The notes beneath the pieces are model-generated. The model saw only the letters and a list, made by a program, of their open reading frames with translations. It searched no databases and was not told the DNA's origin. DNA of 64,000 nt from an uncultured bacterium. GTDB lineage: Bacteria > Patescibacteriota > Patescibacteriia > Magasanikbacterales > GWA2-37-8. Below, piece by piece: positions 16,001 through 46,100 of this stretch. The stretch spans positions 3,183 through 67,182 of the forward strand of contig CALCZC010000016.1 in the NCBI GenBank assembly GCA_937903605.1, in the 5' to 3' direction. Made by a program: the position numbers and the translations under genes. Numbering within the stretch: the first letter of the stretch is position 1; the number at the start of each line of letters is the position of its first letter.

Positions 16001-17125
16001 TCCATGCGCGTTAATTCCCGTAGAACTTACGGTATAGTAATCCCTTATATTCTTTGAAGCATTCCAATCCCTGTTATCAATGTTTCCGCACTTCTCACAG
16101 TTATAAACTCGTTCATTCATTCCCAAAGTTTCTTTTACATTTCCACATTTATTGCATGTTTTAGAGGACGGATAGAAGCGTGGAACTTGAGCTAAAAGGA
16201 TTGAATTCCATTCAGTTTTATAACTGAGCTGTCTCCCGATTTCCGATAGGGAACTGTCGGCTAATGCTTGGGCTAACTTATGGTTCTGCATCATATTCTT
16301 TAAAGATAAATCTTCCATCATTATTACGCTTGGTTTGGTTTTCACTAAGCTCGTAGTGATTTTATGAAGATTATCCTTACGGGTATTGGATATTTTATAA
16401 TGAAGTTTTGCTACCCGTTTCCTTGATTGTTCTCGGCGGTTACTCCCCTTCTGCCTACGACTTAACTCTCGTTGAAAGCGTTTAAGTTTACGAAGATAAT
16501 ACTTCAATACCTTCGGATTATTAAAGATTTCATTATTGGAAGTATGAATTAGATTAGTAATTCCGAGGTCTATTCCGATGATTTCTCCTGTGGTTTGTTG
16601 TTCTGGGATTTCAAACTCAAAAGAAGTTGATATAAACCAATGCCCTGCTTTCTCTGAGATAACCACTGACTTTATTGGAAGGTTCGGAATGTAATCTTTT
16701 TCCTTTAAACGAATCCATCCAAGACGAGGAAGTTTAATCCTGCCCGATTCGATATGAAAACTTCCGTCAAGGTAGAATGAATTGGAACTTTTATGTTTGG
16801 ATTTGAACCTTGGAAATCCGGCTTTAATGCCTTTCTTCAAATCGCGGAAGAAGTTTTTGAATGCTCTGTCTACATTTCTTATCGCTTGCTGTGGAGCGCA
16901 TTTACTAACTTCATACATCCACGGAAATTCAGTTGCCTTCAATTCATTTAATATTTTATGCTGTTCAATGGGTGAGATTGATTTCTTTTCGGATTCATAA
17001 AGTTTAATTCGCTCATTCAATGCCCAGTTATAAGTAAATCGTGCCGTGCCCGAATGCTTTTTCAGTAACGTTTTTTGTTTATTATTCGGTTTCAATTCAA
17101 CCTTATAACTTTTGGATATCTTCAT
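15923..17125 (-). CDS. tnpB: TnpB (IS605 OrfB-family RNA-guided nuclease), catalytic triad apparently intact
   Basis: N-terminal KVELKPNNKQKTLL ... ARFTYNWAL; RuvC-I IGIDLGITN; RuvC-II MEDLS; zinc finger CNKCGN ... CEKCGN; RuvC-III NRDWNASKNI. Confidence 0.85.
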   Translation of the reverse strand: MKISKSYKVELKPNNKQKTLLKKHSGTARFTYNWALNERIKLYESEKKSISPIEQHKILNELKATEFPWMYEVSKCAPQQAIRNVDRAFKNFFRDLKKGIKAGFPRFKSKHKSSNSFYLDGSFHIESGRIKLPRLGWIRLKEKDYIPNLPIKSVVISEKAGHWFISTSFEFEIPEQQTTGEIIGIDLGITNLIHTSNNEIFNNPKVLKYYLRKLKRFQRELSRRQKGSNRREQSRKRVAKLHYKISNTRKDNLHKITTSLVKTKPSVIMMEDLSLKNMMQNHKLAQALADSSLSEIGRQLSYKTEWNSILLAQVPRFYPSSKTCNKCGNVKETLGMNERVYNCEKCGNIDNRDWNASKNIRDYYTVSSTGINAHGQNVRRENPMESNRSLDEVRNQQKVT

Positions 17126-28093: not shown

Positions 28094-28114
28094 ATGAAAG
28101 TGAGTGAAATATAA
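28094..28114 (+). other. second 6-codon mini-ORF MKVSEI, TAATG-coupled to the major capsid gene
   Basis: atg aaa gtg agt gaa ata taa tg; 16-nt identity with the copy at 27622. Confidence 0.4.
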
Positions 28115-29034
28115 TGAGAACCAATTACTTAACCAAAAGCGAAATCGCTAACGTAGAAAAAGTTATGGCGTCCCTTAAAAACGTCGTTAAAGACGCAGAT
28201 ACCGCTTCGTATGACGAACTGGTAAAAGCCGGCACGTTTGTAGTTAATGACTATATCGCAGAGAACCCCTCGCTGCTCGACCTTAGCTCGTTACTGTTTA
28301 ATCCTGGTCAGGTCAATGGCGACGTTCTTGATGTCGAAATCGGACATGGCGGCGTAGCGTACATGCATGCGATTGGTTCGCAGGCTGTACTGTCTCAGGC
28401 TTACATCGAAAGAGTTTCGACGAAAATGAACCGTTTTTCGTTCGCAAGCAAAATCGATGTTAACGCAGTTCGCACTCAGAATGTTGTAAAACTTCTGGAA
28501 GACGCTGCTGAAATCAGATTCAAACTTGGTCTGAAGAAATTCAGATACATATGGGACCTCGTAAAAGCTACGATAACCACTGGCGACCCGATATACATTT
28601 CGGCTGCTACCGTTAACAAAACTAACCTCGACTCGATAATGAACACTATGATGGACACTTCGGGTTCGGTTAAAGCGATAATCGGTCGCGAATCGCTTGT
28701 TACCCAGATAATGGGCTTCAGCGGATGGTCGGAAGTCACCCTGCGCGAAATCGAAACCGGCGTATTCGGTCAGTATCGTGGCGCTCGTCTCGTTGGTATC
28801 AAGAACTATGAAACCACCATCGTTGACGCAGCTGGCACCAAATTCGATACGGCTCAGATCCCTGCTGACCAGCTTATACTGCTCGGCGAAAAATGCGGTT
28901 ACGACGGCGAGAACCCCGTTCAGACGCTTGCTGGCACTGACGTTCTCCTCGGCGCAGAAGTAAAAAATACCTTCTTCGATTACGCTGCTATCATAGTAGA
29001 CGAAAAGAAGATAGGCGTTTACAACATCGCTTAA
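28114..29034 (+). CDS. major capsid protein
   Basis: 306 aa, follows the scaffold, strong terminator downstream. Confidence 0.55.
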   Translation: MRTNYLTKSEIANVEKVMASLKNVVKDADTASYDELVKAGTFVVNDYIAENPSLLDLSSLLFNPGQVNGDVLDVEIGHGGVAYMHAIGSQAVLSQAYIERVSTKMNRFSFASKIDVNAVRTQNVVKLLEDAAEIRFKLGLKKFRYIWDLVKATITTGDPIYISAATVNKTNLDSIMNTMMDTSGSVKAIIGRESLVTQIMGFSGWSEVTLREIETGVFGQYRGARLVGIKNYETTIVDAAGTKFDTAQIPADQLILLGEKCGYDGENPVQTLAGTDVLLGAEVKNTFFDYAAIIVDEKKIGVYNIA

Positions 29035-29892: not shown

Positions 29893-31038
29893 ATGTTAAG
29901 AAGTTATAAAACAGAGATAAAGCCGTCAACAGAACAAAGAGAGAAAATAAATCGAACAATTGGAACGTGTCGATTCATTTATAACTTCTTTATAAAACAT
30001 AATAAAGAGCAATATCTTCAAACAAAGAAATTTGTTACCGGATATGATTTCTCAAAATATCTCAATAACGAGTTCATTCCTAACAATCCAGACTTTAAGT
30101 GGATAAAGGAAGTAAGTTCAAAAGCAGTAAAGCAATCGATAATGAATGCAGAACAGTCGTTTAAAAACTTCTTTAAAACGAAAAAAGGATTCCCTAAATT
30201 TAAAAAGAAACATAACTCGATAGTTAAAGTTTATCTTCCTAAAAATAGTGATACTGATTTGTTAGTTGAACGTCATAGAGTTAAAGTTCCAACGTTCGGA
30301 TGGATAAATTTAAAAGAAAAAGGATACATTCCAGTTGATAAGTTAGTTAAAAGTTGTCGTATCGAAAAGAAAGCGAATCGTTACTTCATCTCTGTACTTG
30401 TCGAAACGGGAGTTGAAATCAATTCCTCAAGCAATTCACTGAAGGGCATTGGAATCGATTTAGGGTTGAAAACCTTCGTAACTGTAAGTAATGGAGAAAC
30501 TTTTCCAAATATAAATAAAACAAGAGAAGTTAAAAAATTAGAAAGGAGAATAAAGTCGGATCAAAGGAAATTATCAAGGAAATTGAAAAATAAAAAGAAA
30601 GGAGAGTCTACTAAGAATATAGATAAGCAAAGGTTAAGATTACAGATAGCACATCAGAAACTTACGAACAAGAGACATGATTACTTGAATAAAGTTGTCA
30701 GGTCACTGGCGATAACCAAGCCAGCATTTATAACAATCGAAGATTTGAATGTAAGTGGTATGATGAAAAATAGGCATTTATCTCGCAGTATTGCATCCAT
30801 GAATTTCAGTAGATTTCGTAATCTATTAACCCAAAGGAGTAAAGTTAATTCTTTTGAGTTACGAATAGCAGATAGATTCTTCCCTTCCAGCAAGAAATGT
30901 TGTCAGTGTGGCAATATAAAGAAGGCATTAAGTTTGGCAGAAAGAATTTATGTCTGTGAAATTTGTGGAAACGAAATTGATAGGGATTTAAATGCTGCAA
31001 AGAATCTTGAAAAATTAGAAGTTTATCGAGTCGCGTAG
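29893..31038 (+). CDS. tnpB: TnpB (IS605 OrfB-family RNA-guided nuclease), second copy; about one-third identical to the first; catalytic residues present
   Basis: KTEIKPSTEQREKINRTIGTCRFIYN; IGIDLGLKTF; IEDLNVSGM; CCQCGN ... CEICGN; DRDLNAAKNL. Confidence 0.85.
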   Translation: MLRSYKTEIKPSTEQREKINRTIGTCRFIYNFFIKHNKEQYLQTKKFVTGYDFSKYLNNEFIPNNPDFKWIKEVSSKAVKQSIMNAEQSFKNFFKTKKGFPKFKKKHNSIVKVYLPKNSDTDLLVERHRVKVPTFGWINLKEKGYIPVDKLVKSCRIEKKANRYFISVLVETGVEINSSSNSLKGIGIDLGLKTFVTVSNGETFPNINKTREVKKLERRIKSDQRKLSRKLKNKKKGESTKNIDKQRLRLQIAHQKLTNKRHDYLNKVVRSLAITKPAFITIEDLNVSGMMKNRHLSRSIASMNFSRFRNLLTQRSKVNSFELRIADRFFPSSKKCCQCGNIKKALSLAERIYVCEICGNEIDRDLNAAKNLEKLEVYRVA

Positions 31039-31196: not shown

Positions 31197-32423
31197 GTGG
31201 AGCAACAGACGAAAAGAAAAACTAAAGTATTATATGTAGGCGATTATAACCGCCCTACGGGATTTGGAGAAGTAAGCAAGAACCTATTACATCGTTGGAT
31301 GAATGATGACGAATTTGAATTTACAGTATTAGCATGTAATTATAATGGGCAGTCACCTGTTTATCCGGCACATTTCCCTGTTTATGCTTGCCATAGCGAT
31401 TATGCATTAAATGAGATAGCGCATGTATTTGATATAGTACAGCCAGATATTCTTATTACACTTAATGACGGCTATGTAATGCCGAGTTACGTGCGACAGC
31501 TCGGAGCTCGCCTTAATAACTGTTGGTGGATTGGATATGTTGTCTTTGATGGCACTCCTATTGCAAGATGGAGAGAGGCGCTTAAGCATATTGACTTAGT
31601 AGTATTTCCGACAGAATGGCAAGCGCAGGAAATGGCTAAAGTTATGCCTGATTTTAAGTGCGCCGTAGTAAGTCATGGCGTTAATTTAGATGTTTACAAA
31701 CCCGTGGAAAAGACCGGGATTAAACAATATAAAATGGCAGCACTTGGCGAAAAGAATGCAGACGCTTTTATATTTGGCATGATAGCGAAGAACTTTGAAC
31801 GCAAGAGATATCCAGAATTAATACAGGCTTTCGCTATATTCAAGTATAAGAGTGGCATTGAATTTAAGCGCAATCCAATGCTGATGTTGTATCAGACAAC
31901 GGAGCGTGGAGAATTTAACCTTGAAAACCTTGCTAAAATAGCAGGATGTAAAGATGGAGATGTTGCGATTATAACGGCTCCAGATAATCAAGGATTAACA
32001 GACAATGAAATGAATTTACTCTATAATTCGTTTGATGTTAACTGCCTTATCTCGATTGGCGAAGGATTTGGGTTGCCTACAATTAATGCGGCGGCTTGTG
32101 GCAAGTTAACAATGGCCATGAATAACTCAGTTCAGCCGTCACTTGCTAAATACTTTCCTATGTATTTAGTCCCTTGTGATAATCAATCTCCTGTGTGGTT
32201 CGGAAAAGATATGGAACAGATTCGTTTTATTCCAGATTGCAAGAAACTTGCACAGGCAATGTGCGAAGTATATGTTAAGATGAACGAACCTGGCTTCGCT
32301 GAACAGATTGCTAAAGAGGCAATGACAAGTGCTAAAGAATTTACTTGGGATATTATGGCAGATGATTTCATGTCATTGGTGAAGCCTTATGTTGGACAAT
32401 CCAAGAAGGCCCAGGTGATTTAA
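31197..32423 (+). CDS. GT4-family (GT-B) glycosyltransferase
   Basis: GEGFGLPTINAAACGK motif; GTG start. Confidence 0.55.
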   Translation: MEQQTKRKTKVLYVGDYNRPTGFGEVSKNLLHRWMNDDEFEFTVLACNYNGQSPVYPAHFPVYACHSDYALNEIAHVFDIVQPDILITLNDGYVMPSYVRQLGARLNNCWWIGYVVFDGTPIARWREALKHIDLVVFPTEWQAQEMAKVMPDFKCAVVSHGVNLDVYKPVEKTGIKQYKMAALGEKNADAFIFGMIAKNFERKRYPELIQAFAIFKYKSGIEFKRNPMLMLYQTTERGEFNLENLAKIAGCKDGDVAIITAPDNQGLTDNEMNLLYNSFDVNCLISIGEGFGLPTINAAACGKLTMAMNNSVQPSLAKYFPMYLVPCDNQSPVWFGKDMEQIRFIPDCKKLAQAMCEVYVKMNEPGFAEQIAKEAMTSAKEFTWDIMADDFMSLVKPYVGQSKKAQVI

Positions 32424-33529
32424 TGAATATACTTTGGATTTATGGACTCACTGAAAGCTCTGGATATGCAAGAAACTCAAGAGAGTTTATCAAGGCGCTC
32501 AATGCAAATGGCGTTACTACTAAGTTCTTAAGCCTTGGGCATAGCAAATACCCAGAGAAAGCAATAATGGGTAAATGGGAAGCGGAAACTGGTTATTCAT
32601 ATGATTTAGTAGTACAGAATTGTGTTCCTCCTGCGTTTAAAAAGTTCGGTAATAAAAAGAATATCTTAATGACCGTGGCAGAAACTGATAGCGTTTCTCA
32701 AGAATGGGTTAAATGCTGCAATACTGCGGATGAAGTATGGACTATGAGTTATTATAGTCAGGCAGCGTTTATTCATTCGGGAGTTACTGTTCCTGTAAGA
32801 GTCGTATTGATGCCGATTGATATTCAGGCGATACAAAGCGCCGGTCGTATTAAAAGCCCAGAGATAGCAGAGCAGCTTAATAAATTTAGAGCAAAATGTA
32901 GCTTTATTTTCATGGCAAATTCAGAATGGACTCCGCGCAAGGGATGGGACATCTTATTGCATTCTTTTTGTAAAGTATTCGCTCCATACGAAGACATCGG
33001 ATTAATGATTAAAACATGTTGTTTCTCTGGCGTTGAAACATCGCAATCTATGGCAAGATTAGTTAAACAGATTAAAGAGCAGTATGACGCGAAATGTCCT
33101 GTATTCATAATAAATGATGTTATGGATATTGAAGACGTATGGACGCTATATAAGTTCGCTGATGCGTTTGTATTGCCATCTCGTGGCGAGGGATGTGGTA
33201 TTCCATTTTTAGAAGCAATGTCCATGGGGTTGCCAACGGTAATGCCCTCTCACGGGGGTCAAGTGGACTATGCTAATGATATGCTTTGCACAAGGGTTAA
33301 GTCATATTTAAGGCCGGCCCATAGATTCCCTCATAATCCTAACTATGACGAAACAATGTTATGGATCGAGACGGACCAAAATGAGCTTTCAGATAAACTA
33401 ATGAGCGTTATAATGAATCATAATAAAGAAAGAAATGAGCTTGGCAGAGGTCAGTTCATAGAGACGTTTTCTTATGATGGAACTGCAATAAAAGATTTTA
33501 TCAAAATAGCGGAAGTGGTGATTAAATGA
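32423..33529 (+). CDS. GT4-family glycosyltransferase
   Basis: SRGEGCGIPFLEAMSMGLPTV (EX7E motif). Confidence 0.6.
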   Translation: MNILWIYGLTESSGYARNSREFIKALNANGVTTKFLSLGHSKYPEKAIMGKWEAETGYSYDLVVQNCVPPAFKKFGNKKNILMTVAETDSVSQEWVKCCNTADEVWTMSYYSQAAFIHSGVTVPVRVVLMPIDIQAIQSAGRIKSPEIAEQLNKFRAKCSFIFMANSEWTPRKGWDILLHSFCKVFAPYEDIGLMIKTCCFSGVETSQSMARLVKQIKEQYDAKCPVFIINDVMDIEDVWTLYKFADAFVLPSRGEGCGIPFLEAMSMGLPTVMPSHGGQVDYANDMLCTRVKSYLRPAHRFPHNPNYDETMLWIETDQNELSDKLMSVIMNHNKERNELGRGQFIETFSYDGTAIKDFIKIAEVVIK

Positions 33530-34674
33530 AATATATAATTTATGGAAATATTTATTCAGCAACATCGTTTTCAAATGTAATTCTTCATATGGCATACTAT
33601 TTAAGAAAATCTGGCAATGAGGTAGTTTTAAAATCAACCGAATTACTAAATGAACCTGAAGAGACGCTAATTGCTAAATATATGTCTCATATGCCCGATT
33701 CAAATGATTTATTAAAGAACTGCCTGTACAAAGACCAAAATGATTTTGATGTTGCTATATATTTCTTGGTCGATCCATTAGTCCATGCTCCAAATAAATC
33801 TATACGGGCCAAGAAACATATTTTCTATACTGTTTGGTCACATAATAACTATCCGATTAAATGGGCAGAAGCATTAAATCAGTATGATGAAGTATGGACT
33901 CCATCTCATGCTAATTCTGATGCCATTGTTAAAACTGGCAAGTGCAATAAACCTATTATTGTAATGCCACATGGATACGAACCATTGGTGTTTAATAATT
34001 TAGATAGGCATAAAAATAAGACATTTAAAATAGGCATGTGTAACTCTATATGCAACTTCAAGGGCGCTGATGTAGCCCTTGAGGCGTTTATGGAGTCATT
34101 CGATTATGGGGATGATGTTGAATTATGGCTTCAATCTACTGTGTCAGTAAGAAATAATCATGGTGATAAACATGGGCAATATTATAAAGAATACATTGAT
34201 ATACTGAATAAATATCCTGATAAGCAATTAAAAACATTCTATTATCAGAAAGACTGCAATATATCTGAAATGGCAGATTTTTATAGGTCATGTGATTTGA
34301 TATTATCTCCTCATCGTGGCGATGGATTTGGGCTTGTAGGGCTTGAAGCAATGGCATGTGGGGTTCCCGTTGTAATATCAAATTATCATGGGCCAAAAGA
34401 TTATATATCAGAGGCATATCCATATTGGTTGTGTGGCTCAATGGATTGGGTTAATCATTTTAGCAATAAACCGCATTGGCCTGATGGTGGCGATAAAGAA
34501 GAGATATACATGTTTTTCAATCCCGATAAAGAACATTTAAAAAAGATTCTATTGTCAGCTTATAGTGATTGGCAACATGATATAACATTGGAATGCAAAC
34601 AGTATTTTAAAGGACAATCATGGCAGAGCATAGTAGACTTTGTAGAGAGGTTGTGTAATGGAAAAAGTATTTAA
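33526..34674 (+). CDS. GT4-family glycosyltransferase
   Basis: HRGDGFGLVGLEAMACGVPVVISN. Confidence 0.6.
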   Translation: MKYIIYGNIYSATSFSNVILHMAYYLRKSGNEVVLKSTELLNEPEETLIAKYMSHMPDSNDLLKNCLYKDQNDFDVAIYFLVDPLVHAPNKSIRAKKHIFYTVWSHNNYPIKWAEALNQYDEVWTPSHANSDAIVKTGKCNKPIIVMPHGYEPLVFNNLDRHKNKTFKIGMCNSICNFKGADVALEAFMESFDYGDDVELWLQSTVSVRNNHGDKHGQYYKEYIDILNKYPDKQLKTFYYQKDCNISEMADFYRSCDLILSPHRGDGFGLVGLEAMACGVPVVISNYHGPKDYISEAYPYWLCGSMDWVNHFSNKPHWPDGGDKEEIYMFFNPDKEHLKKILLSAYSDWQHDITLECKQYFKGQSWQSIVDFVERLCNGKSI

Positions 34675-35290
34675 TGATATATTTTTGTATAAAGGATGGC
34701 AGGGGGAGGGGACAATTTCTGGCCCTGGCTCTACAATCGAAGCAACCAAAAATATTCGAAGATTCTTATCTAACCTTGGACAGATAAATATTATTGATTG
34801 TCCTTGTGGGGATTTTAATTGGATGAAGTTAGTGGCTGAAAAATTTAATAACTATTATGGCATAGATATTGTAAAGGATATTATCAATAATAACAATAAG
34901 AGATATTCAAAAGATAATATTTACTTTATACATGGAAGCCTTGATAATTATGATTTTTCGACCATTAATGCTGAATATATGCTAATACGAGACTGCCTAG
35001 TACATATGTCGCTTCAAGACATTATATCTGTCTTTAAAAATATTATAAAAAGTAATGCTAAAAAAATAATGATAACGCATTTTAATGATAATAGATTATT
35101 TAAAGACATTAATACTGGCGAATGGCGTCCTATAAATTTTTGTATGCCTCCATTTAATTTTCCGTCTCCACATTATTTACTTAACGAAGAGTGCAAGGAG
35201 TGCAATGGCATATTCGCAGACAAATCCATTGGAGTATGGGATATGCAAGTAATTAAAGATTTTATTGCAAAATATGATAAAATAAAGTAA
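34658..35290 (+). CDS. class I SAM-dependent methyltransferase-like protein
   Basis: IIDCPCGDFNWM (motif I-like) and YGIDIV (motif II-like). Confidence 0.45.
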   Translation: MEKVFNDIFLYKGWQGEGTISGPGSTIEATKNIRRFLSNLGQINIIDCPCGDFNWMKLVAEKFNNYYGIDIVKDIINNNNKRYSKDNIYFIHGSLDNYDFSTINAEYMLIRDCLVHMSLQDIISVFKNIIKSNAKKIMITHFNDNRLFKDINTGEWRPINFCMPPFNFPSPHYLLNEECKECNGIFADKSIGVWDMQVIKDFIAKYDKIK

Positions 35291-35313
35291 AATACATATG
35301 GAAGGTGATTTAA

Positions 35314-35883
35314 GTGAAAATATCAGTAATTACTTTTAAGGATAATATTTTAGACATTCTTGACGCTAGACGTCAATTTAAATATGACCATATCGAAGTT
35401 TATGCTCCCGCAGAAAAAGAACGCGCGTTTCGCAAACAGGCCAAAGGATCAGACGTAAGAATTAAGTTCTTGCATGAGCTGATGTATGGCAATGATATTC
35501 TGGTCTTTATTGGCTGCACAACTGATTTTATACAGAACAATATTACCAAAGGCAAAGAAGTATTAATGACCAACGATAAGGTTATTGCAGTTGGTGCGAA
35601 AGAAGTGCTTGGACCTTATATGATTGGTGGCGTATCTTATTTTAAATTTAAGCCTCTTCAGATTCTTACTAAGCCGATAGAGGTAAAGTCTGAGATAAAA
35701 ATTGAGCCAGTTAAGATAGAGATTCCTATTGAAGTTTCTATTGAAAAAATAGTTGAAGTTGGGCCTATTAAGGCTATTGTCGAAGAGCCTAAAAAAGAGG
35801 AAATTGTTATTAAGGCTGAAGCTCCTATTGAACCTCCCGTTGCAGAAGTTAAAAAGATTCTGCCCAAAAGGGGCAGAAGATAA
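35314..35883 (+). CDS. hypothetical protein with a P/E/K/I-rich repetitive tail ending KRGRR
   Basis: ORF; low-complexity (PIEV/KIE)n. Confidence 0.4.
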   Translation: MKISVITFKDNILDILDARRQFKYDHIEVYAPAEKERAFRKQAKGSDVRIKFLHELMYGNDILVFIGCTTDFIQNNITKGKEVLMTNDKVIAVGAKEVLGPYMIGGVSYFKFKPLQILTKPIEVKSEIKIEPVKIEIPIEVSIEKIVEVGPIKAIVEEPKKEEIVIKAEAPIEPPVAEVKKILPKRGRR

Positions 35884-36413
35884 TGAACAAGTTTGATAAG
35901 TATTGTGGTATGCATGCGTGGATTCCTGCGCCAAACTTATCAAATGGATTTCATGGGATTCTCTTTCAATATATTAAAGAATATTATCAAGATAGAAATT
36001 CGTTGCTTATGATTGCAGAGAATGATAATGTAAATAATATATTTGAAAGAGAGTTTCGCAATATTTCGATTAACAATAACTCATATTCGGGAAGTAAGGG
36101 CGAGCAGTTTATCGACTTGAATATAAAATTAAATTGGGAGTCTAAATTTGATTTTGTATTAAGTCAGGCTTTATTAGAACATGTCTGCCGCCCATGTATT
36201 GCTTTAGAGAATATGGTTGATGCGACGAAGATAGGCGGCAAAATAATAATACATACTCAAAATGCCCAGATGGGATATCATGCCGTACCGATTGACTGTT
36301 TAAGGTTTTTTAAAGATTGGTTTGTTGATATGCAAAAATATCTTCCAATTAAGTTAATTGCATGGAACGAATTTGGGCCACATTTGTTTTGCATGTATGA
36401 AAGGATTAATTAA
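35883..36413 (+). CDS. methyltransferase-like (FkbM/class I-like) protein
   Basis: FDFVLSQALLEHV ... GGKIIIHT; weak. Confidence 0.3.
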   Translation: MNKFDKYCGMHAWIPAPNLSNGFHGILFQYIKEYYQDRNSLLMIAENDNVNNIFEREFRNISINNNSYSGSKGEQFIDLNIKLNWESKFDFVLSQALLEHVCRPCIALENMVDATKIGGKIIIHTQNAQMGYHAVPIDCLRFFKDWFVDMQKYLPIKLIAWNEFGPHLFCMYERIN

Positions 36414-37144
36414 TGAACATTGCGGTTATAATGTGTTATTGTGGTAGGAATGAGAGATGGCTCTATCAATCAATATGCTCGTTAAAATCAGAGAAACATA
36501 ATGTTGATGTTTATTTGCATTTAGACGGATGTCAGAGGCCAGTTTCTTTTGTGTTTGCCGATAATATTAAAGTTGTTCAATCGCCATCTCGCTTAGGTTA
36601 CGCGAATGGCATTAATAAATGTGTTCTTGCAATCGCCCAGTCTGGCAAACATTATGATTATATTGCTCGAATGGATGATGATGATGTTAGCGCTGATGAT
36701 AGATTGGATAAACAAGTTGAGTTTTTAGAGCAGAACAAAAATATTGATTTTTGCGGTTGCTTGCTTACTGTTATTGATGATGCAGGAAAAGTAACGGATA
36801 ATACATGGATGGCCCAAGCAAATAATGGAATTGATTGGTCAACTCGTTTTTTAAATGGTGGTTGTTATATTGCCAATGGCACTGTAATGTTCAGATCAAA
36901 AATATTATATGAGGGACACCTTTGGTATAATCCATTGTATCTTGTAATTGAAGATTATGAACTATGGTTTAGATTATTTCGACAGGGTTATAGATACGAT
37001 GTAGTTCCAGAAAGATTGTATTTGTATAGAGTTCACGCTGGACAAGAAACACAAAGGCATTCAGAGCATAATAAGAAAATGGCAATGGCAGATGAGATAC
37101 ATCAGTTTTATGTAAAGAATTGGAGCAAGTTTTTAGTAAAATGA
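36413..37144 (+). CDS. GT2-family (GT-A) glycosyltransferase
   Basis: DxD cluster ARMDDDDVSADD and the EDYELWFRL motif. Confidence 0.55.
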   Translation: MNIAVIMCYCGRNERWLYQSICSLKSEKHNVDVYLHLDGCQRPVSFVFADNIKVVQSPSRLGYANGINKCVLAIAQSGKHYDYIARMDDDDVSADDRLDKQVEFLEQNKNIDFCGCLLTVIDDAGKVTDNTWMAQANNGIDWSTRFLNGGCYIANGTVMFRSKILYEGHLWYNPLYLVIEDYELWFRLFRQGYRYDVVPERLYLYRVHAGQETQRHSEHNKKMAMADEIHQFYVKNWSKFLVK

Positions 37145-38274
37145 GCAAAGAGCAAGAAGAAATAGATATTATAAATAAATTCGTCCAGCGTCATAAGGTC
37201 GAAGGGAATACTCCATTTAGTTATGGGAAGATATTTCATCACTTAGATGTTTTACATGAAATAAAACATCGTCCAGAAGACGTATGTCCCGTAACTCTGG
37301 AATTACATTTGACAAATAAGTGTTCGCATAATTGCTTATTCTGTATGTATAAAAAAGAGATAAGAGAAAGCAATATTTGTTCGGCAGAGATTCCGTTTGA
37401 TATAGCTGAATCTATAATAGACGATGCTGCAAGAATGGGAGTTAAGGCAATTACTTATAGCGGTGGAGGGGAGCCGACATTACACCCTCAGTTTAAAGCT
37501 ATATCTACGATTGGCAGTGACTATTCAATAGACCAGGGGTTAATTACTAATGGAAGTATGCTGCATCACAAAGATATATGTGAACATATTGTAAATAATT
37601 TTAAATGGGTTCGCATATCTGTTGATGCCGGTTCGGATTCAGTATATAAAATATTGCATGGCAACTGTTGTGATTTTAGCAAAACAATAGACGGAATTAA
37701 GCAATTATGCGTTATAAATAACAATAGAATCAAAATAGGCATTTCCTTTTTATTGACATCATTTAATTCTTGTGATATGATTAAATTGTATGATATTTTG
37801 TCTTCCATTGGCGTTGATTACCTACAGATAAAGCCCATGATTATGTCTAAAAATCAAAAAAGCATACATAACAATTATATTACACAGGCAATCGTAGATG
37901 ATATTGAGACGCTAATACAGAAGGCAGAGAAAGACAATAAGATAAAAGTATATGTATTATTCGACCAGTTTAAAAATATTATAGGCAACGAACATACTTT
38001 TGATAAATGCCATGGACATGCGTTATATCCAGTTATATCGGCGATACAGGAAATCTTTGTCTGCTGCATGCATTTACATAATGACTCAATGAAATATGGA
38101 AAAATAACTAAAAATAATTCGTTTTATGATATATGGCGTAGTAAAAAAAGATTCCAGATTGGCGACAACATTGATTTAAGCAAATGCCCAAAATTATGCC
38201 GATTGGCGAAGACAAATAACATTTTAGACATGATAGATAAAACTACTAATTTAGATATTAATTTTTTAAATTAA
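37120..38274 (+). CDS. radical SAM enzyme with C-terminal Cys-rich (SPASM/twitch-like) extension
   Basis: CSHNCLFC (CX3CX2C), SGGGEPTLHP glycine motif; C-terminal CHGH ... CC ... C ... C. Confidence 0.65.
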   Translation: MEQVFSKMSKEQEEIDIINKFVQRHKVEGNTPFSYGKIFHHLDVLHEIKHRPEDVCPVTLELHLTNKCSHNCLFCMYKKEIRESNICSAEIPFDIAESIIDDAARMGVKAITYSGGGEPTLHPQFKAISTIGSDYSIDQGLITNGSMLHHKDICEHIVNNFKWVRISVDAGSDSVYKILHGNCCDFSKTIDGIKQLCVINNNRIKIGISFLLTSFNSCDMIKLYDILSSIGVDYLQIKPMIMSKNQKSIHNNYITQAIVDDIETLIQKAEKDNKIKVYVLFDQFKNIIGNEHTFDKCHGHALYPVISAIQEIFVCCMHLHNDSMKYGKITKNNSFYDIWRSKKRFQIGDNIDLSKCPKLCRLAKTNNILDMIDKTTNLDINFLN

Positions 38275-38283
38275 GGGGGTTAC

Positions 38284-38721
38284 ATGCATTCAGTTACTCA
38301 GACAATAATAGATAAAATAAAGCGTCAGGTTACAGTTGGCACTGATACGGATGCTACTATCGCGCTTAAAATAGGCGATACTTTTGATGATATTTATAAC
38401 GATACTGGCGTTTCTTTATCATTTGTCGATGAAACTGATTATGAGATAACTCCAAGTATAGCCGGCACCGCTAACGGATCGTATCGTTTGGCGATATTCT
38501 ATAAAGTAAAGGCATATTACTTAATTAAGGCCAAGGATGCCGCTACAGCGAAAGCAGTTAGGGTTAAGTCTGGTCGCGATGAGGTTGATACAACTAAGGC
38601 AGTTGGCGGATATGAGAACTCGATTAAAGATAATGCGACTGACTATAAGAAATGTGTTAATAAGATTAATTCGGTGTTAGGCGGAAGACTTGCTGATGTC
38701 AGCGAACAGGATGAGGTATAA
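38284..38721 (+). CDS. head-tail connector or neck protein (hypothetical)
   Basis: Position; GGGTTACATG SD. Confidence 0.4.
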   Translation: MHSVTQTIIDKIKRQVTVGTDTDATIALKIGDTFDDIYNDTGVSLSFVDETDYEITPSIAGTANGSYRLAIFYKVKAYYLIKAKDAATAKAVRVKSGRDEVDTTKAVGGYENSIKDNATDYKKCVNKINSVLGGRLADVSEQDEV

Positions 38722-39257
38722 TGGCTATAGTAGAACCTGAGTTACTAACAGATGATATTATAGAAACATATCAAAGCAATATCACGGCGATCAAGCATCA
38801 ACTTGGAACGCTTGCGGATATTGTATGGAACGAAGAAGAGGTTAAATGTCCTAACTGCTTCTATGATTCTGTTAATAAATCGTCTACTGGCAGATATAGG
38901 CCATCTGGACCTATAGTGTTTACGACAGGCACTTGTCCGTATTGTTCTGGAAAGGGAATGCTGACGAATACTGGCAAACTTAGCATAAAGGGAAATGTAT
39001 TCTATCCTGGCTTATTTACACACGATAGAGAGCCTGAGCCTGGATATGTATTTGATAATCAGAACGCTAATATATCATTTTTAAAAAGCGAATGCTATAT
39101 AAGCGAAGGACAATATAGTGGTAAGCTGGTTTTTGATGTAATGAGATATATGGAGTTTGATTCCCAGAAATGGGTATTGGATGGCATGCCAATGTGGACA
39201 GGCTTAGGCGAAAGATTCGTAATAGAGGCTAAAATAAAAAGAACGAATAAGGTGTAA
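38721..39257 (+). CDS. neck/head completion protein with zinc ribbon (CPNC ... CPYC)
   Basis: Position. Confidence 0.4.
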   Translation: MAIVEPELLTDDIIETYQSNITAIKHQLGTLADIVWNEEEVKCPNCFYDSVNKSSTGRYRPSGPIVFTTGTCPYCSGKGMLTNTGKLSIKGNVFYPGLFTHDREPEPGYVFDNQNANISFLKSECYISEGQYSGKLVFDVMRYMEFDSQKWVLDGMPMWTGLGERFVIEAKIKRTNKV

Positions 39258-39258
39258 T

Positions 39259-40209
39259 ATGGCGGAAGATTTTATTAAATTTGAATCTTTTTTACGAAAA
39301 TTTCAAATGGGAAAGTTCGTTGAATTAGACCTAACTGGACTCAAGAAAGCATTTAATAAGATAAGGGGAGAGCGTGGAAGATTTATCGGCAAGTCTGCCG
39401 CTTTCGCTAAGTTATTAGAGGCTGTCAATGTTGGCAGCGAGTTCGGGATTAAAGATGTTGCATATAAGATTTATGAAGAGTATAAAAAAACTCTTAAAAG
39501 GTCAAGTAATCCAATTGTTGCATCTGTTTTAGAATCGTTGGGCGCGATATGTGAAGAGATGCAGATGAACCCTAAAAAATATTTTAATATAAAGATAGTT
39601 AAAGAAGACCAAATAGAAGTAAGAGCCAGACCGTTTAATATGACATTATTTAATAAGAGCACGATAAAAGATAGACAATCATATTATCGGCCACGCGGTA
39701 TTGTTAGAACTAAATATAAAGACTATGATATAAAGCCGCTATTCATAACAAACCCGATGTATGGCAGAAACTCGTCGCATGTGGGCATGGGCGTTTTGTT
39801 TGAATTTGGCAGGGCCAGCGCTGGCACGATTCGGCCAGGACAAGAAGCGAAGGAAACAATTTATAGAACCAAACCTAAATCAAAAGGCAAAAAACCAGAG
39901 TATCGTAAGAGAAAAATAAAAGGCTCAGAGTCGTTTGCATATTACACTGTACTGCCACAGCAATCAGTTTTAAAAGAAACCAAAAAGGGTTTAGCTTTTG
40001 GTGGACAAAAACGCGCTCTTTTGATTCCTGTTAGTTCAAGGGAATATGTTTTTAGGTCGCAATCTCGCTGGGGAAAAACAAAGGGTATGAATAAGATATA
40101 TGAACAGCAAAACGTCATTCGGGATAAATATGTTAAGGCTTTTATTGAAGCGATAGAAGTATCTTTAAAAAACTTTGGATTTAATAAATTTTCAGTAACA
40201 AGGGCGTAA
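39259..40209 (+). CDS. neck/tail completion protein (hypothetical)
   Basis: Position. Confidence 0.4.
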   Translation: MAEDFIKFESFLRKFQMGKFVELDLTGLKKAFNKIRGERGRFIGKSAAFAKLLEAVNVGSEFGIKDVAYKIYEEYKKTLKRSSNPIVASVLESLGAICEEMQMNPKKYFNIKIVKEDQIEVRARPFNMTLFNKSTIKDRQSYYRPRGIVRTKYKDYDIKPLFITNPMYGRNSSHVGMGVLFEFGRASAGTIRPGQEAKETIYRTKPKSKGKKPEYRKRKIKGSESFAYYTVLPQQSVLKETKKGLAFGGQKRALLIPVSSREYVFRSQSRWGKTKGMNKIYEQQNVIRDKYVKAFIEAIEVSLKNFGFNKFSVTRA

Positions 40210-40211
40210 AT

Positions 40212-40754
40212 ATGGAATTAAGAAGAATGGCAATAATTAATTTATGTTTTGAGGCAAAGCGTATTATTGAATCAGTAATAGGCAGAGATGATTTTACATA
40301 TTTACTTGAAATGCCAGATGATGATAAACAAATAGTATTTCCTGTTGATTATCAAGAAGGACTTAACTATAAGATGCCAGTTTGCGTTGTAGACGCAGAT
40401 TTCTTTGAGATGGAACCAGTTGAAATAGGCGGTTCTTTTTGGGATATAGCGCATGTAACAATAGACATAATATGCGTAACAAAGGCAGAAAGTATGGATA
40501 TTGCTGAAACTATTCTTAAGAATTTAGTAAGCAATCATAATTTTTATGATTTTAATGCAGACGCAGATATACCAGACATCAACGAACCCTTTGACCCAGG
40601 GCTGTTGCCGTCTACGGTATTAACTCAATGGGATGTGACGAGCGAGGAAGATTTTTCTCAATCGACACTGAAACTAACTAATTCTACAGAGCCGAATTAT
40701 GCAAAGCGATATCAAAGTACGCTTGCAGGAACTATTCGGTACATCAGAAACTAA
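40212..40754 (+). CDS. tail completion / head-tail joining protein (hypothetical)
   Basis: Position. Confidence 0.4.
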   Translation: MELRRMAIINLCFEAKRIIESVIGRDDFTYLLEMPDDDKQIVFPVDYQEGLNYKMPVCVVDADFFEMEPVEIGGSFWDIAHVTIDIICVTKAESMDIAETILKNLVSNHNFYDFNADADIPDINEPFDPGLLPSTVLTQWDVTSEEDFSQSTLKLTNSTEPNYAKRYQSTLAGTIRYIRN

Positions 40755-40774
40755 TTTAACAGGACGGTGTTAAA

Positions 40775-42109
40775 ATGAGTGTAACAACCCAAATTCAAGG
40801 CAAGGGTCAAGCGATATTCATGAACAATGATATCCTTAAAAGAGTGCAGAATGTGGACCTTGGTGCAGACTTGGCAGTTGAAAACATAGAAGAACTCGCA
40901 AATGCGGGCTATGTTGAAAAACTTGCCGATCTTCCTAAAGTTTCCGTTTCAATAGAAACTAATGATGTTGGCTCGATGGCAAACTTAGTGCTTCTGAAAA
41001 GCGGCACCCAGCTTCCTTCGACCCCGACTGCTTATGGCGTTAACAGAGGTACGACTGGTATATATGTAGGAACTTATTCGGGCAACGATGTTGTCACGAT
41101 GTTAGACCCTACTTATGACCTCGACCATCAAAAATGCCCTTCGTTTGTATTTAAAATAAGCGAATTTAATAACACTACGCTCGACAGAAGCTGCCACTTA
41201 CAGGGAACTTATCTCGATGCAGTAGAATTTGCATATGAGGTTGGCGGTCTCGCAAAAGAAAACTATCGTTTCTCTGGCGACCATAAAGTATGGTATTTCG
41301 GCACGAAGAAAGATATAGCGCTTGATTTCGCAACTTATTCGGATGCTTCAAATGCAACGACTACGGTTAATATGACTACTTTAGGTCTTACGCTTGAAGC
41401 AGTATTCCTTAATAAAGAAGAAATATATAATGATGCCAAATCATTAGATACTTATTCGATAACTTGGGCTGGCACTACGCTTACGGCTGGCACTGGAACT
41501 CCGTTCCTCTCTGGCGACCGTATCGAAGTGGTTTACAGCTACAATACTGCTCGCGAATTCCCGAAACTGAATACGACTAATACTGGTACTCGCGGTGGTC
41601 TTCGCAGGGGTTGTATCAAAGTGTACGCATGGAAAAATGGCGATACTGGCGATAAAGAAAAATTACTCCGTTGCCAGAGCGTAAGCGGTTCGTTAGATTT
41701 CGGCAGACAGGAAATATACGAACTTGGCACTCAGCGCTACATCGATAAACCAACTACTTATCCGCTGAATGTTAGATTCGACCTTACCTTCAACCAGGCC
41801 GATCTTAAAACGATGGCAATAGCACAGGGTAAGTTCGCATCTGGCGCCTCTCCCAATTGGGAAGATGGAACTCTGACTACTATGGATGTTAAAGACTTCA
41901 TAGATAATTGCGACGTTCAGGTTGAAATCTACAAAGACGCTCATACTGCAACCGCGTCTACCCTCGCTAAAACGATAACTTTTGCTAACTGCAAAATAGT
42001 TACCGAAGGCGACTCGGCGCGTGTTGGCAATACGGCTGGCCAGTGGAGAGCAACCCTTCAGACTGATAACATCGTATGGTCTGGAAGCGGCAATAATCTC
42101 GATAGCTAA
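40775..42109 (+). CDS. major tail protein (siphovirus-type)
   Basis: 444 aa, immediately before the G/GT chaperones and the tape measure; strong terminator after it. Confidence 0.45.
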   Translation: MSVTTQIQGKGQAIFMNNDILKRVQNVDLGADLAVENIEELANAGYVEKLADLPKVSVSIETNDVGSMANLVLLKSGTQLPSTPTAYGVNRGTTGIYVGTYSGNDVVTMLDPTYDLDHQKCPSFVFKISEFNNTTLDRSCHLQGTYLDAVEFAYEVGGLAKENYRFSGDHKVWYFGTKKDIALDFATYSDASNATTTVNMTTLGLTLEAVFLNKEEIYNDAKSLDTYSITWAGTTLTAGTGTPFLSGDRIEVVYSYNTAREFPKLNTTNTGTRGGLRRGCIKVYAWKNGDTGDKEKLLRCQSVSGSLDFGRQEIYELGTQRYIDKPTTYPLNVRFDLTFNQADLKTMAIAQGKFASGASPNWEDGTLTTMDVKDFIDNCDVQVEIYKDAHTATASTLAKTITFANCKIVTEGDSARVGNTAGQWRATLQTDNIVWSGSGNNLDS

Positions 42110-42113
42110 TTGC

Positions 42114-42142
42114 TTGACATTCGTAATTTAATACGATAAAAT
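42114..42142 (+). promoter_or_regulatory. sigma-A promoter TTGACA-17-TAAAAT
   Basis: Direct reading. Confidence 0.45.
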
Positions 42143-42188
42143 GGTAGTGATGGTAGAGTAATTTCTGCTGTCACTATCATTTTTTTTA
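42141..42188 (+). terminator. rho-independent terminator (13-bp stem with G-U pairs followed by T8), overlapping the promoter -10 and start site
   Basis: AUGGUAGUGAUGG ... CUGUCACUAUCAU then UUUUUUUU. Confidence 0.5.
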
Positions 42189-43124: not shown

Positions 43125-46100
43125 ATGGCATCTCAAGACGCTAATATAAAACTTCTTATAGAATCTCAAGTTAATACGACTAAGGCCATTGCAGATTTAC
43201 AATCATTTGCAAATCAAGCGAAAACAGAGGCCAAAAATCTTAATAAGGTTTTAGAGGCCGCTTTTACTTTGCCAAGTAAAACTGGTCGCGGTGGCGGTAT
43301 ATTTGGAAGCATGCTTCAAAGTATTAAAGAGATGAATAAGAGCGTTAATACTGTATCCACGACTATGCGTGAAAGCATGGGAGAAGTTAAGGGTGCAGTT
43401 GATAGCGTAAAAGATTCTATTATGGCCCTTTCTGATTCTATTAAAGGATTAACTGGAAAGAAGCATAAAGTACAGATTGAGCAAGAGATAGTAACCAAGG
43501 GTGGGACTGTATTAGATGATGCGGTTTCTGATTCTGGCGGTACAACTGGAGGCAAGAAGAAATTACCAGCGAATTTACTTTCAGCCCGTGGAGAAATAAC
43601 TCAAAAAATAAGCAAAGTTAAAAATCCGTCTCGTGCGGCAATAGAATCTATAGTTCGGGGAACTAAATTAAGTACGGGGAAAACTATAGGGGATGCCTTT
43701 AATAAAGAAGTTATTAATAGATTCATAGATAAATTAACCATGGAAACTGCCGCAGAAACATCCATGGGGATTAAAAATTTCTCAGATGATATTCGAAGGT
43801 GGGCTTCTGAAAATAGAAAAGGACTTACCTATCAAAAGATTAGATCGCAATTAGATACGTTGGCTATGTCTGGCGGATATTCATTTGGAAAAACAGATAT
43901 AAGCCCTGCTGTATTAGATAAAATGGCACAGAGGGTTGCGTCAGCGCAAATGGTCCAAATTCCTGACACTGGGGCCAATAAATTCAAGGAAACAATCGCC
44001 TCAAAGGAAGTTTCTAATATATTAAGAACAAGACTTAAAGATGTGCCAACTTCTGGTGTATCTGTAGGTCAGTCCGTTGCGGCAGAAAATATATTGGCAT
44101 CGTTAAGAGGAGTAAAAGGGTCTAAGGGTAGATTTAAAATAAATATTAGCGATTTAGAAAAACTTGGCATAGACTTAACCCAGCTTGATACCTTGCCACA
44201 GTTTAAACAAATGGGCCAGGGCGGGAGGACTCCGCAAGAAATTAAAGAGGAAATAGTTTTAAGATTTACTAGGTCAATTAATAGACAATTAGATACTGTT
44301 GCCAGGAAAATTATTAAAGATTTTGAATCTCAACAGACTGGCGCTCCTAGTGGCCCAGAACTAAAAGGACAATTCTCAAGATTGCCAAAGGGATATCTTG
44401 ACCAAGCCAGATGGAAACAAGGCTCTTTTAAGAGCGGAGACGCTTTTATTTCAGACGCTAAGGCATATATGCAATATGCAATTAAAGACCTTGGCATGTC
44501 CTTAAAAGACGTTTTGTCTACGCTAAAAATGGCTCCTGAAATCCAATCTAAAGGGTCATATGTTAATCCAATGTTTGGAATGATAGGTGCAAAAAGCGAA
44601 CAGGGTAGAATGCTACAAATGTTAGCAGACTACGGCGCTCAGATAACTGGAGCAAAACGCCCCGTAGATGAAATGGGTAAAAGTCTTGGAATTGTTAATG
44701 ATTTAATGAGAAAACAAGGCGAGGCTGTCTTAAGGCTCGGAAGATATTATACTTCGTTCTTCCTTATTACATCTAGTATTCAACAGATGAATGAAATGTG
44801 GCGCCAATCTGTTTTAGTTCAAGAACAGATGCTTGAACTTCAAAAGTTTTTGCCACAAGGCTCGAATGTCGGCGCGTTACGCGGTGGGATATATAATCTC
44901 GCTTCTGACTTTGGTGTTCCTATCGATACTGTTCTTGGTGCATATACTGAATTTGCAAAGCAGGGTAAACAGGCAAACGAGATTATAGAATTAACTCGTG
45001 CGGCCTTACTTGGCGTTAACGTCGCATCTACTGATTTTGGAACTACTGTTACATATCTAACAACTGTTACAAATGTTTGGAAAGATCAATTCTCTGACAC
45101 AACTAGGCTGATTGATAAGCTCGCGATTGTACAGGCGAAATCATCAGCATCTTCTGAAGTTTTAATATCGGCAATGCAGCGTTCTGCTTCAATGGCAAAG
45201 GCGATGGGCGTTAGCATTGACCAATTATTTGGCTATATTGGTGCGGTATCAGAAAAAACGCAATTAAGTGGCGAAGTAATTGGAACCTCTTTAAGAACAA
45301 TTTTTGAGCGCTCTCGCAGAGACAAGACTATAAATATGTTAGAGGCAATACCGGCCATAGGAAAAGCTGGATTGCGAACCCCTATTACTCAAGAATTAGC
45401 ATCCGCCCCGCAAATATTAGAATTGGTCGCGCAGAAATGGGATAAGTTAACAGATGTTCAACAAAGGAATATCGCCTTTCAAATGGCTGGCGGTCGTCAG
45501 ATAAACTCATTTATGGCACTAATGGAGAACATGGGCAGGGCATCTGAATTAACAGCCAACTCCATTGATTCATTAAATTATGCATTTAACGCGAATAACC
45601 TTGAATTAGAAAAGTTTTCTAAATCATTTGAATCGCTAAGAACGAGAACATATGAATTAGCGACCTCAGCCATTTTACCAAGCGTTAAATATCTTAGCAT
45701 GTTTATGAACGCTATGACCTCTGTTATCTCCTTAGGCGGGTCATTTAATAAATTGATAACTGGCATGTCTATGGGAGCTGCTGCGTTTTCTGTGGTATCA
45801 GTATTAGCATCTCGCGGTCTTGGTTTATTTATTAAGGCATTAGCAATAGCGCCTGTTATCGGAACAGCAGTTAGTGCTATAGGCGGAATAATTAAATCAA
45901 TAATAACGCTTAACACAACAGCCCTTATGGCCTCTTCCGGTATGCAATCCATGGCCAGGTCGTGGGGCCAAGTTGCTCGTGGCTTCTCTCAAATTGGTGC
46001 GGCAGGATATGGCCTTGTAGGGGTAAGAAATATCTTAAGCGGATTTGGTGGGTTATTAGGCCCAATAGGGCTTGCTGTTGCGGCAATTGGGACCGGAATC

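Follow-up and report, generated by a model that had tools for sequence, protein, structure and literature searches.

What does a radical S-adenosylmethionine (SAM) enzyme do among the head and tail genes of a phage? The question is raised by a gene at positions 37141–38274 of a 64,000-nucleotide stretch of contig CALCZC010000016.1 (assembly GCA_937903605.1, deposited as an uncultured bacterium). This stretch, which we call the window, represents 64 kb of a genome of ~117 kb, and its GC content is ~36%. An earlier note, made from the letters alone, had described a radical SAM enzyme with a C-terminal cysteine region in the late operon, and had offered two roles for it: a modification of a virion protein, such as a thioether or C–C crosslink, or an unusual sugar-tailoring step such as C-methylation or epimerization. 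We propose that the enzyme tailors a sugar as part of a conserved phage glycan cassette and, with moderate confidence, favor a glycan of the virion as the overall explanation.

Assignment to the radical SAM superfamily

The open reading frame on the plus strand at 37120–38274 was listed with a TTG start at 37120, which corresponds to a frame of 384 residues. An ATG at 37141, which overlaps the stop codon of the upstream glycosyltransferase family 2 (GT2) gene as ATGA, gives a product of 377 residues that is 100% identical to a public protein (P0001) encoded on a contig of 116,903 bp. The homologues in our family alignment (n = 45) start at the residue matching this ATG, which is probably the true start rather than the TTG. 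Judging from the ATGA overlap, the GT2 and radical SAM genes are translationally coupled. The gene and the parts of it that carry the assignment are as follows.

37141..38274, plus strand: gene of the radical SAM/twitch-domain enzyme, 377 aa (start from the ATGA overlap, identity to P0001 and the starts of homologues)
37321..37344, plus strand: CX3CX2C motif CSHNCLFC (C61, C65, C68), predicted ligands of the SAM-cleaving [4Fe-4S] cluster
37462..37473, plus strand: GGGE, the SAM-binding 'GGE' motif (G108–E111)
37993..38271, plus strand: predicted twitch (truncated SPASM) domain, approximately residues 285–377 (four invariant cysteines, BtrN profile match, hairpin in the model)
38008, 38062, 38185 and 38197, plus strand: codons of C290, C308, C349 and C353 within the twitch domain

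The protein matches the Pfam family Radical_SAM (PF04055) with an E value of 6.6e-15 and 56.1 bits, against a cutoff of 29.5. In the alignment of 45 homologues, which extends down to 22% identity, C61, C65, C68, G108-G109-G110, P112, N137, R158 and S160 are invariant, as are K30, P50, N359 and the C-terminal cysteines C290, C308, C349 and C353, while E111 is nearly invariant. A second alignment contains the query and 79 homologues from viral contigs. The CX3CX2C motif is kept in 78 of these 80 sequences, with gaps in the remaining two, and GGGE, the motif defined as GGE for DesII (PMC11434129), is also kept in the 79 viral homologues. An AlphaFold2 (AF2) model of the protein (pLDDT 93.4, pTM 0.92) contains three short N-terminal helices (~55 residues, without β-sheet), an alternating β/α core, and a C-terminal β-hairpin (304–306/318–321) followed by helices. 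The Pfam score, the invariant CX3CX2C, GGGE and R158/S160, and the alternating core of the model identify the product, at the level of sequence and model, as an enzyme of the radical SAM superfamily.

A truncated SPASM domain at the C-terminus

Only seven cysteines are conserved among the 45 and 79 homologues, namely the three of the CX3CX2C motif and the four at the C-terminus; all 79 viral homologues keep them wherever the region is present. A full SPASM motif comprises seven cysteines of its own, in the arrangement CX9-15GX4C ... CX2CX5CX3C ... C. The Pfam SPASM profile (PF13186) scores 18.3 bits with the whole protein and 20.3 bits with the isolated C-terminal stretch, against a gathering score of 21.5, and the match spans only positions 15–52 of the 67 in the profile, in its first half. 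A full SPASM domain with two auxiliary clusters is rejected because of the four conserved C-terminal cysteines and the partial match below the cutoff.

A profile was built from the 116 C-terminal residues of 18 family members and searched against the Protein Data Bank (PDB). The one significant match was BtrN (E 2e-4), in which the first two twitch cysteines, C169 and C187 by our own count from the aligned chain coordinates, align with C290 and C308 at the same spacing of 18 residues. A twitch domain binds, by definition, one auxiliary cluster, and that of BtrN, which oxidizes an aminocyclitol by two electrons, has four cysteine ligands (PMC9012708). The four invariant C-terminal cysteines point to ligands for one auxiliary [4Fe-4S] cluster, not for two as in full SPASM. 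The C-terminal domain should, based on sequence and model, be a twitch domain that holds one fully cysteine-ligated [4Fe-4S] cluster.

The earlier note is thus borne out in its call of a radical SAM enzyme with a C-terminal cysteine region, a pattern well beyond chance given the 199 representative clusters that match at E<=1e-30. Its term 'SPASM-like' holds in the sense of a truncated SPASM domain, not of a full one. Putative ligands for a second cluster, whose lack the note had counted as a point against its proposal, are present as the four-cysteine site.

Residue 309 (codon 38065–38067), beside the ligand C308, is a cysteine in the clade of the window and histidine, proline, methionine or glutamine elsewhere in the family, with histidine predominating in distant homologues. 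The family alignment has cysteine in 20 and histidine in 19 of 45 sequences at this position, and histidine occurs in 58 of the 80 sequences of the viral set. The residue may serve as an alternative fifth ligand or as a relay of protons or hydrogen atoms.

Fold matches and curated families

The fold search of the model against the PDB with Foldseek placed the TDP-sugar deaminase/dehydrogenase DesII (8HZV) first, with an E value of 7e-15 and a TMq of 0.63–0.67. It was followed by SuiB, the cytosylglucuronate decarboxylase BlsE, viperin, SkfB, CteB, MoaA and anSME. BtrN was outside the top 50 fold matches, and its sequence similarity to the protein consists of two separate weak matches, one to core positions 35–131 (E 1.2e-10) and the one to the twitch domain given above, without a full-length alignment.

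MoaA, viperin, QueE, anSME and tungsten-cofactor maturase were rejected as functions because the NCBIfam scores are far below the cutoffs (60.9 against 180 for viperin, 56 against 325 for MoaA, 36.3 against 349 for anSME, and 70.8 against 380 for the tungsten-cofactor maturase). We know of no auxiliary cluster in viperin. The models of sactipeptide maturases, SkfB, PqqE and mycofactocin enzymes also remained far below their cutoffs.

A conserved glycan cassette between head and tail genes

The radical SAM gene closes a dense row of eight genes, most of which overlap. Relatives of its product are encoded on four phage contigs, at identities of 70% (L018), 60% (L019), 55% (L001) and 42% (L004). 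These contigs keep, in the same order, three GT-B glycosyltransferase genes, a small methyltransferase-like gene, a GT2-like gene and the radical SAM gene, with the same tail genes after them. L001 and L004 additionally carry a gene for an epimerase/dehydratase of nucleoside diphosphate (NDP)-sugars. The cassette in the window and its borders are made up as follows.

28114..29034, plus strand: putative major capsid protein, 306 aa, assigned by position; upstream boundary of the cassette region
31197..32423, plus strand: GT-B glycosyltransferase, 408 aa, first cassette gene (PHROG 2170 glycosyltransferase, 6e-30; Pfam Glycos_transf_1, 1.1e-6)
32423..33529, plus strand: GT4/GT-B glycosyltransferase, 368 aa (Pfam Glyco_trans_1_4, 5.2e-13; orthologue in L004)
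33526..34674, plus strand: GT4/GT-B glycosyltransferase, 382 aa (Pfam Glycos_transf_1, 2.3e-13, and GT4-conflict, 1.9e-11; orthologue in L004)
34658..35290, plus strand: SAM-dependent methyltransferase, 210 aa (Pfam Methyltransf_25, 1.1e-6)
35314..35883, plus strand: lineage-specific cassette protein, 189 aa (α/β N-terminal half, tail rich in E, P, K, I and V, basic C-terminus KRGRR)
35883..36413, plus strand: small methyltransferase-like protein, 176 aa, core member of the cassette (weak Pfam methyltransferase matches below cutoff; orthologues in L004, L018 and L019)
36413..37144, plus strand: GT2 glycosyltransferase (Pfam Glycos_transf_2, 8.5e-11; directly upstream of the radical SAM gene in L001, L004, L018 and L019)
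38284..42109, plus strand: five downstream virion genes (145, 178, 316, 180 and 444 aa; synteny kept in L001 and L004)
42139–42182: terminator-like hairpin with a 20-bp stem, the first strong one past the cassette

Head and tail genes border the stretch 31197–42109, in which the genes follow one another closely on a single strand, a position that supports the late operon of the earlier note. The gap between the radical SAM gene and the first downstream virion gene is 9 nt. The upstream gene order is that expected for terminase, portal, scaffold and capsid, with proteins of 592 and 628 residues in the terminase and portal positions, and the 28114–29034 product is weakly similar to the capsid-position protein of Clostridium phage Amboise. 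Weak similarity at this position to Bacillus and Clostridium phages, together with the GC content of 36%, is a hint that the host belongs to the Firmicutes. In the terminator scan, nothing strong separates the cassette from the tail genes. Overall, the promoter and terminator scan gave no enrichment over shuffled sequences, and only the lack of a strong internal terminator is used here.

When 80 viral loci were searched by phmmer with the cassette proteins of the window, the links were confined to close relatives, and a Pfam census of neighboring genes, given below, took its place. PHROGs contained no match for the radical SAM protein or for most of the structural proteins, and a megablast search of 32000–40500 against deposited phages gave no match.

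Sugar genes around the wider family

The family comprises 11,620 representative clusters (50% identity) at E<=1e-3, 2,494 at E<=1e-10 and 199 at E<=1e-30. Relatives are encoded on 163 IMG/VR viral contigs, and the BFVD contains many phage radical SAM proteins; the term 'uncommon in phages', which the earlier note had applied to both of its proposed roles, was overstated.

To describe the neighborhoods of viral members, the three genes on each side of the radical SAM gene were collected from 22 viral loci (14 sequence clusters), and the resulting 130 proteins were compared with Pfam. The most frequent families in the census were Glycos_transf_2 (10), Transket_pyr (7), DXP_synthase_N (7), E1_dh (6), Epimerase (5), GDP_Man_Dehyd (4), further Radical_SAM proteins (4) and UDP-glucose dehydrogenase (3), besides methyltransferases and NTP transferases. 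In the podovirus MW202801.1 (L098, 40 kb), which is unrelated to the phage of the window, positions 5595–11655 hold, in order, a capsid gene, a hypothetical gene, the radical SAM gene, and genes of a GT2, a PhyH dioxygenase, a methyltransferase, a NodB-like deacetylase and a glycosyltransferase, followed by tail genes. This is an independent second glycan cassette after a capsid gene. The homologue of Synechococcus phage SynMITS9220M01 is located among genes of a heptose kinase, a heptose isomerase, a heptose epimerase, a glycosyltransferase and a methyltransferase.

Other homologues have similar surroundings. A marine contig with a homologue encodes a DegT aminotransferase, a sugar C-methyltransferase, a GT9, a split transketolase and a phosphoenolpyruvate (PEP) mutase. 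The contig of a homologue labeled by its source as Pseudodesulfovibrio sp. encodes HldE-like, GmhA-like, MBOAT, transketolase, DegT and acetyltransferase proteins, and another cellular locus HldE-like, carbamoyltransferase, WcbI and transketolase proteins. Contigs with a homologue labeled by its source as a Candidatus Pacearchaeota archaeon carry GT4, B12-type radical SAM and epimerase genes. A 35%-identical homologue is adjoined by short-chain dehydrogenases/reductases (SDRs), a CMP-sugar synthetase and a glycosyltransferase. The operon structure in the window and the recurrent sugar-gene neighbors of phage and cellular homologues make a fairly strong case for a sugar as the substrate of the enzyme.

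The family repeatedly adjoins split transketolases or other E1-type enzymes that use thiamine diphosphate (ThDP) (L009, L010, L012, L103), and two members (P0027, P0041) are fused to transketolase domains. The ThDP-linked loci often also contain HldE/GmhA-like heptose genes and further SPASM radical SAM genes. From gene content, this association looks like an uncharacterized sugar pathway.

Proposed reaction

Based on the predicted cluster sites and the gene context, a mechanism can be proposed. The reduced cluster of the core would cleave SAM to a 5'-deoxyadenosyl radical, which would abstract a hydrogen atom from a carbinol carbon of the sugar, be it an NDP-sugar from the host or one that the GT2 has transferred beforehand. 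The substrate radical would then be oxidized, with the auxiliary cluster as the electron acceptor, to give a keto-sugar, as in the dehydrogenations of BtrN and DesII. The keto-sugar may be kept as such or processed further. The cassette, expressed together with head and tail genes, would build an unusual oligosaccharide that carries methyl groups, and its most likely site would be virion proteins as they are assembled.

Oxidation of the sugar, proposed by analogy, is a tentative assignment. Aminotransferases, C-methyltransferases and ThDP enzymes all use keto-sugars, and oxidation would fit these frequent partners of the family. We keep the assignment tentative because such partners are absent from the window and because the neighboring transketolases could instead merely supply heptose precursors. 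Decarboxylation as in BlsE, or dehydration or deamination as in DesII and AprD4, are also possible.

Epimerases of the NeoN/HygY type use an additional conserved cysteine, from which the substrate radical receives a hydrogen atom back. Such epimerization is disfavored, since the invariant cysteines of the family are the seven cluster ligands and no extra one is present. C-methylation by the enzyme itself is unlikely because Pfam detects no B12-binding or HemN-type domain; B12/HemN-type radical SAM enzymes are encoded by separate genes near some homologues. Of the sugar-tailoring idea in the earlier note, the general part thus gains from the conserved glycosyltransferase/methyltransferase cassette and the neighborhoods of homologues, and the two specific reactions that it named appear unlikely.

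Target of the glycan and competing explanations

Virion proteins, to which we assign an even chance, are favored as the glycan acceptor: the cassette follows a capsid gene both here and in an unrelated phage, and here it is packed together with tail genes. That the phage carries on its own virion a glycan containing a sugar made by the radical SAM enzyme, whether keto, deoxy or otherwise rearranged, is possible but rather doubtful.

Several observations weigh against an enzyme of sugar tailoring for the virion. No aminotransferase, SDR or sugar-activating gene is present in the cassette of the window, and without an aminotransferase a DesI/DesII-like pair cannot operate there; the C-methyltransferases and ThDP enzymes that accompany other family members are also absent from the window. 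The capsid assignment of 28114–29034 is positional only. All fold matches are at 12–18% identity, and the maturases SuiB, SkfB and CteB, which act on peptides that are made by ribosomes and then modified post-translationally (RiPPs), score ~10–1000-fold worse than DesII; being close behind it at such low identity, they prevent the fold search alone from being decisive. The protein reached no NCBIfam equivalog cutoff, and we found in the literature neither a characterized member of the family nor a combination of radical SAM, heptose and transketolase genes. The closest relatives outside the cassette (P0009–P0013 and L005; 35–38% identity, ~430 aa) have an N-terminal extension of ~55 residues resembling a helix-turn-helix, and the 38%-identical one of L005 (5381–6679) has membrane-protein neighbors and no glycosyltransferase neighbors. 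Lastly, on the phage contig SRR27456519_685006 (L102, 341–2645), the gene of a 32%-identical homologue of 458 residues, also with an N-terminal extension (P0014), is immediately followed by that of a TET-associated glycosyltransferase (Pfam TAGT, 1.4e-35), with a large terminase gene nearby.

The most serious competitor, which we nevertheless regard as unlikely, keeps the sugar substrate and changes the acceptor: the cassette would remodel a surface polysaccharide or lipid-linked glycan of the host, of the lipopolysaccharide (LPS), capsule or teichoic-acid type. A role of this kind has been suggested for the glycan islands that cyanophages and pelagiphages carry. 'Host recognition cluster' regions of pelagimyophages vary by radical SAM cassettes (PMC7029224). 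Cellular homologues in clusters of the capsule or LPS type (GT9, WcbI, HldE/GmhA-like), the cyanophage homologue, whose heptose cluster lies apart from the structural module, and the usual action of GT4 and GT2 families on lipid-linked or sugar acceptors are also consistent with such remodeling. However, the cassette lies on one strand between the capsid gene and connector/tail genes, as it does in the unrelated podovirus, and Pfam detects in it no flippase, polymerase or undecaprenyl-phosphate transferase. We also see no obvious benefit from remodeling the host surface late in the lytic cycle.

A DNA target, with glycosyltransferases that decorate modified phage bases and a radical SAM enzyme that tailors the DNA-linked sugar or a base substituent, is improbable for the window. 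Radical SAM enzymes are known in pathways of thymidine hypermodification, and the position of P0014 beside TAGT and terminase genes is a hint that some family members may serve to hypermodify DNA with sugars. In the window, however, the glycosyltransferases are of the GT4 and GT2 types, and the cassette is located in the late structural module, not with replication or nucleotide genes. No TAGT, TET/JBP, hydroxymethylase or base kinase occurs among the window proteins scanned (the window being 64 kb of the ~117 kb), and a Pfam scan of the early-region open reading frames found no DNA-modification enzymes.

Still less probable is a peptide or protein maturase that introduces a thioether, a C–C crosslink, or an epimerized or oxidized residue into a virion protein or small peptide, as the earlier note had considered. 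Many RiPP maturases belong to the SPASM/twitch enzymes, the fold and profile searches match SuiB, SkfB, CteB and anSME, and the gene adjoins virion genes. However, the best fold match is the sugar enzyme DesII. Even at E<=10, Pfam matches nothing in residues 1–60, so that a RiPP recognition element (RRE) or PqqD domain is absent, and the N-terminus consists of only ~55 residues of helices. The single auxiliary-cluster site and the low scores against all RiPP-maturase models of NCBIfam also speak against a maturase. The overlapping start upstream and the 9-nt gap downstream leave no space for an adjacent small precursor gene. The neighbors of homologues are sugar genes, and the list of the 25 most frequent neighbor families has no entry of the RiPP type or for peptide maturation, proteases, transporters or precursors. 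The crosslinking idea is thus not supported by what the note had itself named as refuting it, a best structural match of the DesII type and no RRE domain.

The 35314–35883 product, which the note had named as a possible precursor, was also rejected in this role. Its three phage orthologues (193–210 aa) are conserved in the globular N-terminal half and vary in an acidic, proline-rich tail, and the family ends in a conserved basic (K/G)RG(R/K)(R/K). The alignment contains no conserved cysteine and no repeat core. A homologue search returned only the protein itself, with no family match and none beyond close relatives, and a single-sequence AF2 model was unreliable (pLDDT 44.7).

Chemistry of the MoaA, viperin or QueE kind on a free nucleotide (for example a chain terminator or cofactor), unrelated to the cassette, is suggested by NCBIfam and PDB matches of the core domain to viperin, MoaA and tungsten-cofactor maturase, but is very improbable given scores far below the curated cutoffs, viperin similarity confined to the radical SAM core, three cysteine ligands in the auxiliary cluster of MoaA (PMC9012708) against four invariant cysteines here, and glycosyltransferases as conserved operon partners.

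Other features of the window

The tail module continues past the hairpin with large proteins, and two TnpB-type genes and a YpsA-like gene stand out elsewhere.

43125–50777: tape-measure protein, unusually long at 2,550 aa, followed by large tail proteins
56223–62633, plus strand: tail-fiber-like protein, 2,136 aa (fn3 repeat; Peptidase_S74 intramolecular chaperone domain at the C-terminus)
29893–31038, plus strand: TnpB-type gene, 381 aa, between the head genes and the cassette
15923–17125, minus strand: TnpB-type gene, 400 aa, ~260 bp from tRNA-Pro (15591–15664, minus strand)
12242–12760, minus strand: YpsA/SLOG-family protein in the early minus-strand region (Pfam, 3.5e-21)

Both TnpB-type proteins combine HTH_OrfB_IS605 and OrfB_IS605 with a Cas12f1-like TNB zinc ribbon. 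No TnpA was seen with either gene, and the related phage contigs (L001, L004 and the 70% and 60% relatives) have no TnpB at the spot that matches 29893–31038.

Significance

The enzyme belongs to a large family for which we found no curated model or paper; phage genomes that carry members are already deposited, with generic annotations. What appears to be new, argued by analogy, is a twitch radical SAM carbohydrate enzyme placed in a phage glycan cassette. If this is correct, virion glycosylation would extend beyond simple sets of glycosyltransferases and methyltransferases, inside structural operons, and would have its first example that depends on a radical SAM enzyme. The family, with at least 199 clusters (50% identity, E<=1e-30) and 163 viral contigs, would represent a widespread unstudied route to unusual sugars under anaerobic conditions. 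The window protein would provide the first biochemical handle on a twitch radical SAM family common to phages, DPANN archaea and bacterial capsule clusters, and, with 377 residues, is a compact candidate in the search for new radical chemistry on carbohydrates. Such chemistry is relevant to phage therapy, as the glycans of virions influence how the immune system recognizes them and possibly which hosts they infect. If the sugar substrate is wrong, the protein is one more unassigned phage radical SAM protein.

Comparison with known systems

The closest analogy for the placement of the cassette comes from mycobacteriophages. Work of Freeman and colleagues from 2023 in Cell Host Microbe (cited in PMC12801897) reportedly describes glycosyltransferases and methyltransferases encoded with structural genes, which are thought to decorate capsid and tail proteins. 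To our knowledge, no radical SAM enzyme has been described in these cassettes. The phage of the window is unrelated to the mycobacteriophages, and for it virion glycosylation is a proposal.

The homologous twitch radical SAM protein of the podovirus MW202801.1 (Podoviridae sp. ctQWt234), annotated as 'putative Fe-S oxidoreductase', aligns with 90% of the query at 27.5% identity, and a single gene lies between its gene and that of the major capsid protein. Its cassette differs in the PhyH and NodB genes and in having only two glycosyltransferases.

The SPASM RiPP maturases and anSME (SuiB, CteB, PqqE, anSMEcpe) belong to the same branch of the superfamily. In profile, they align with the core and with the SPASM region in its first half, and their fold matches have TMq of 0.54–0.61. 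They have seven cysteines and two auxiliary clusters, and most have an RRE or other peptide recognition, whereas the window protein has four C-terminal cysteines, no RRE and no peptide gene.

DesII pairs with the aminotransferase DesI, and DegT-type aminotransferases adjoin some cellular homologues of the window protein, whereas the cassette of the window contains no such partner. DesII, a TDP-4-amino-4,6-dideoxy-D-glucose deaminase and TDP-quinovose dehydrogenase, acts on an NDP-sugar. It shares with the window protein a layout of N-terminal helices, radical SAM core, and C-terminal β-hairpin with helices (two in DesII), but has a single cluster and no C-terminal cysteine ligands (PMC11434129), whereas an auxiliary site is present here. 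The two proteins have 12–14% identity, DesII is ~100 residues longer, and the PDB sequence match covers the core only.

BtrN (2-deoxy-scyllo-inosamine dehydrogenase, 4M7T), the founding twitch radical SAM enzyme, has, like the window protein, one four-cysteine auxiliary site, and its substrate is carbohydrate-like, comparable to the proposed sugar. BtrN is ~250 residues long, with neither the helical extension at the N-terminus nor the long helices at the C-terminus, and the similarity is confined to short stretches. Its second cysteine pair is CX2C, as opposed to CX3C here. The context of BtrN is an aminoglycoside pathway, whereas that of the window enzyme is a phage glycosyltransferase cassette. 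The window enzyme would work like BtrN or DesII; it does not belong to the DesII family and probably not to that of BtrN, and its likeness to DesII is one of fold and layout only.

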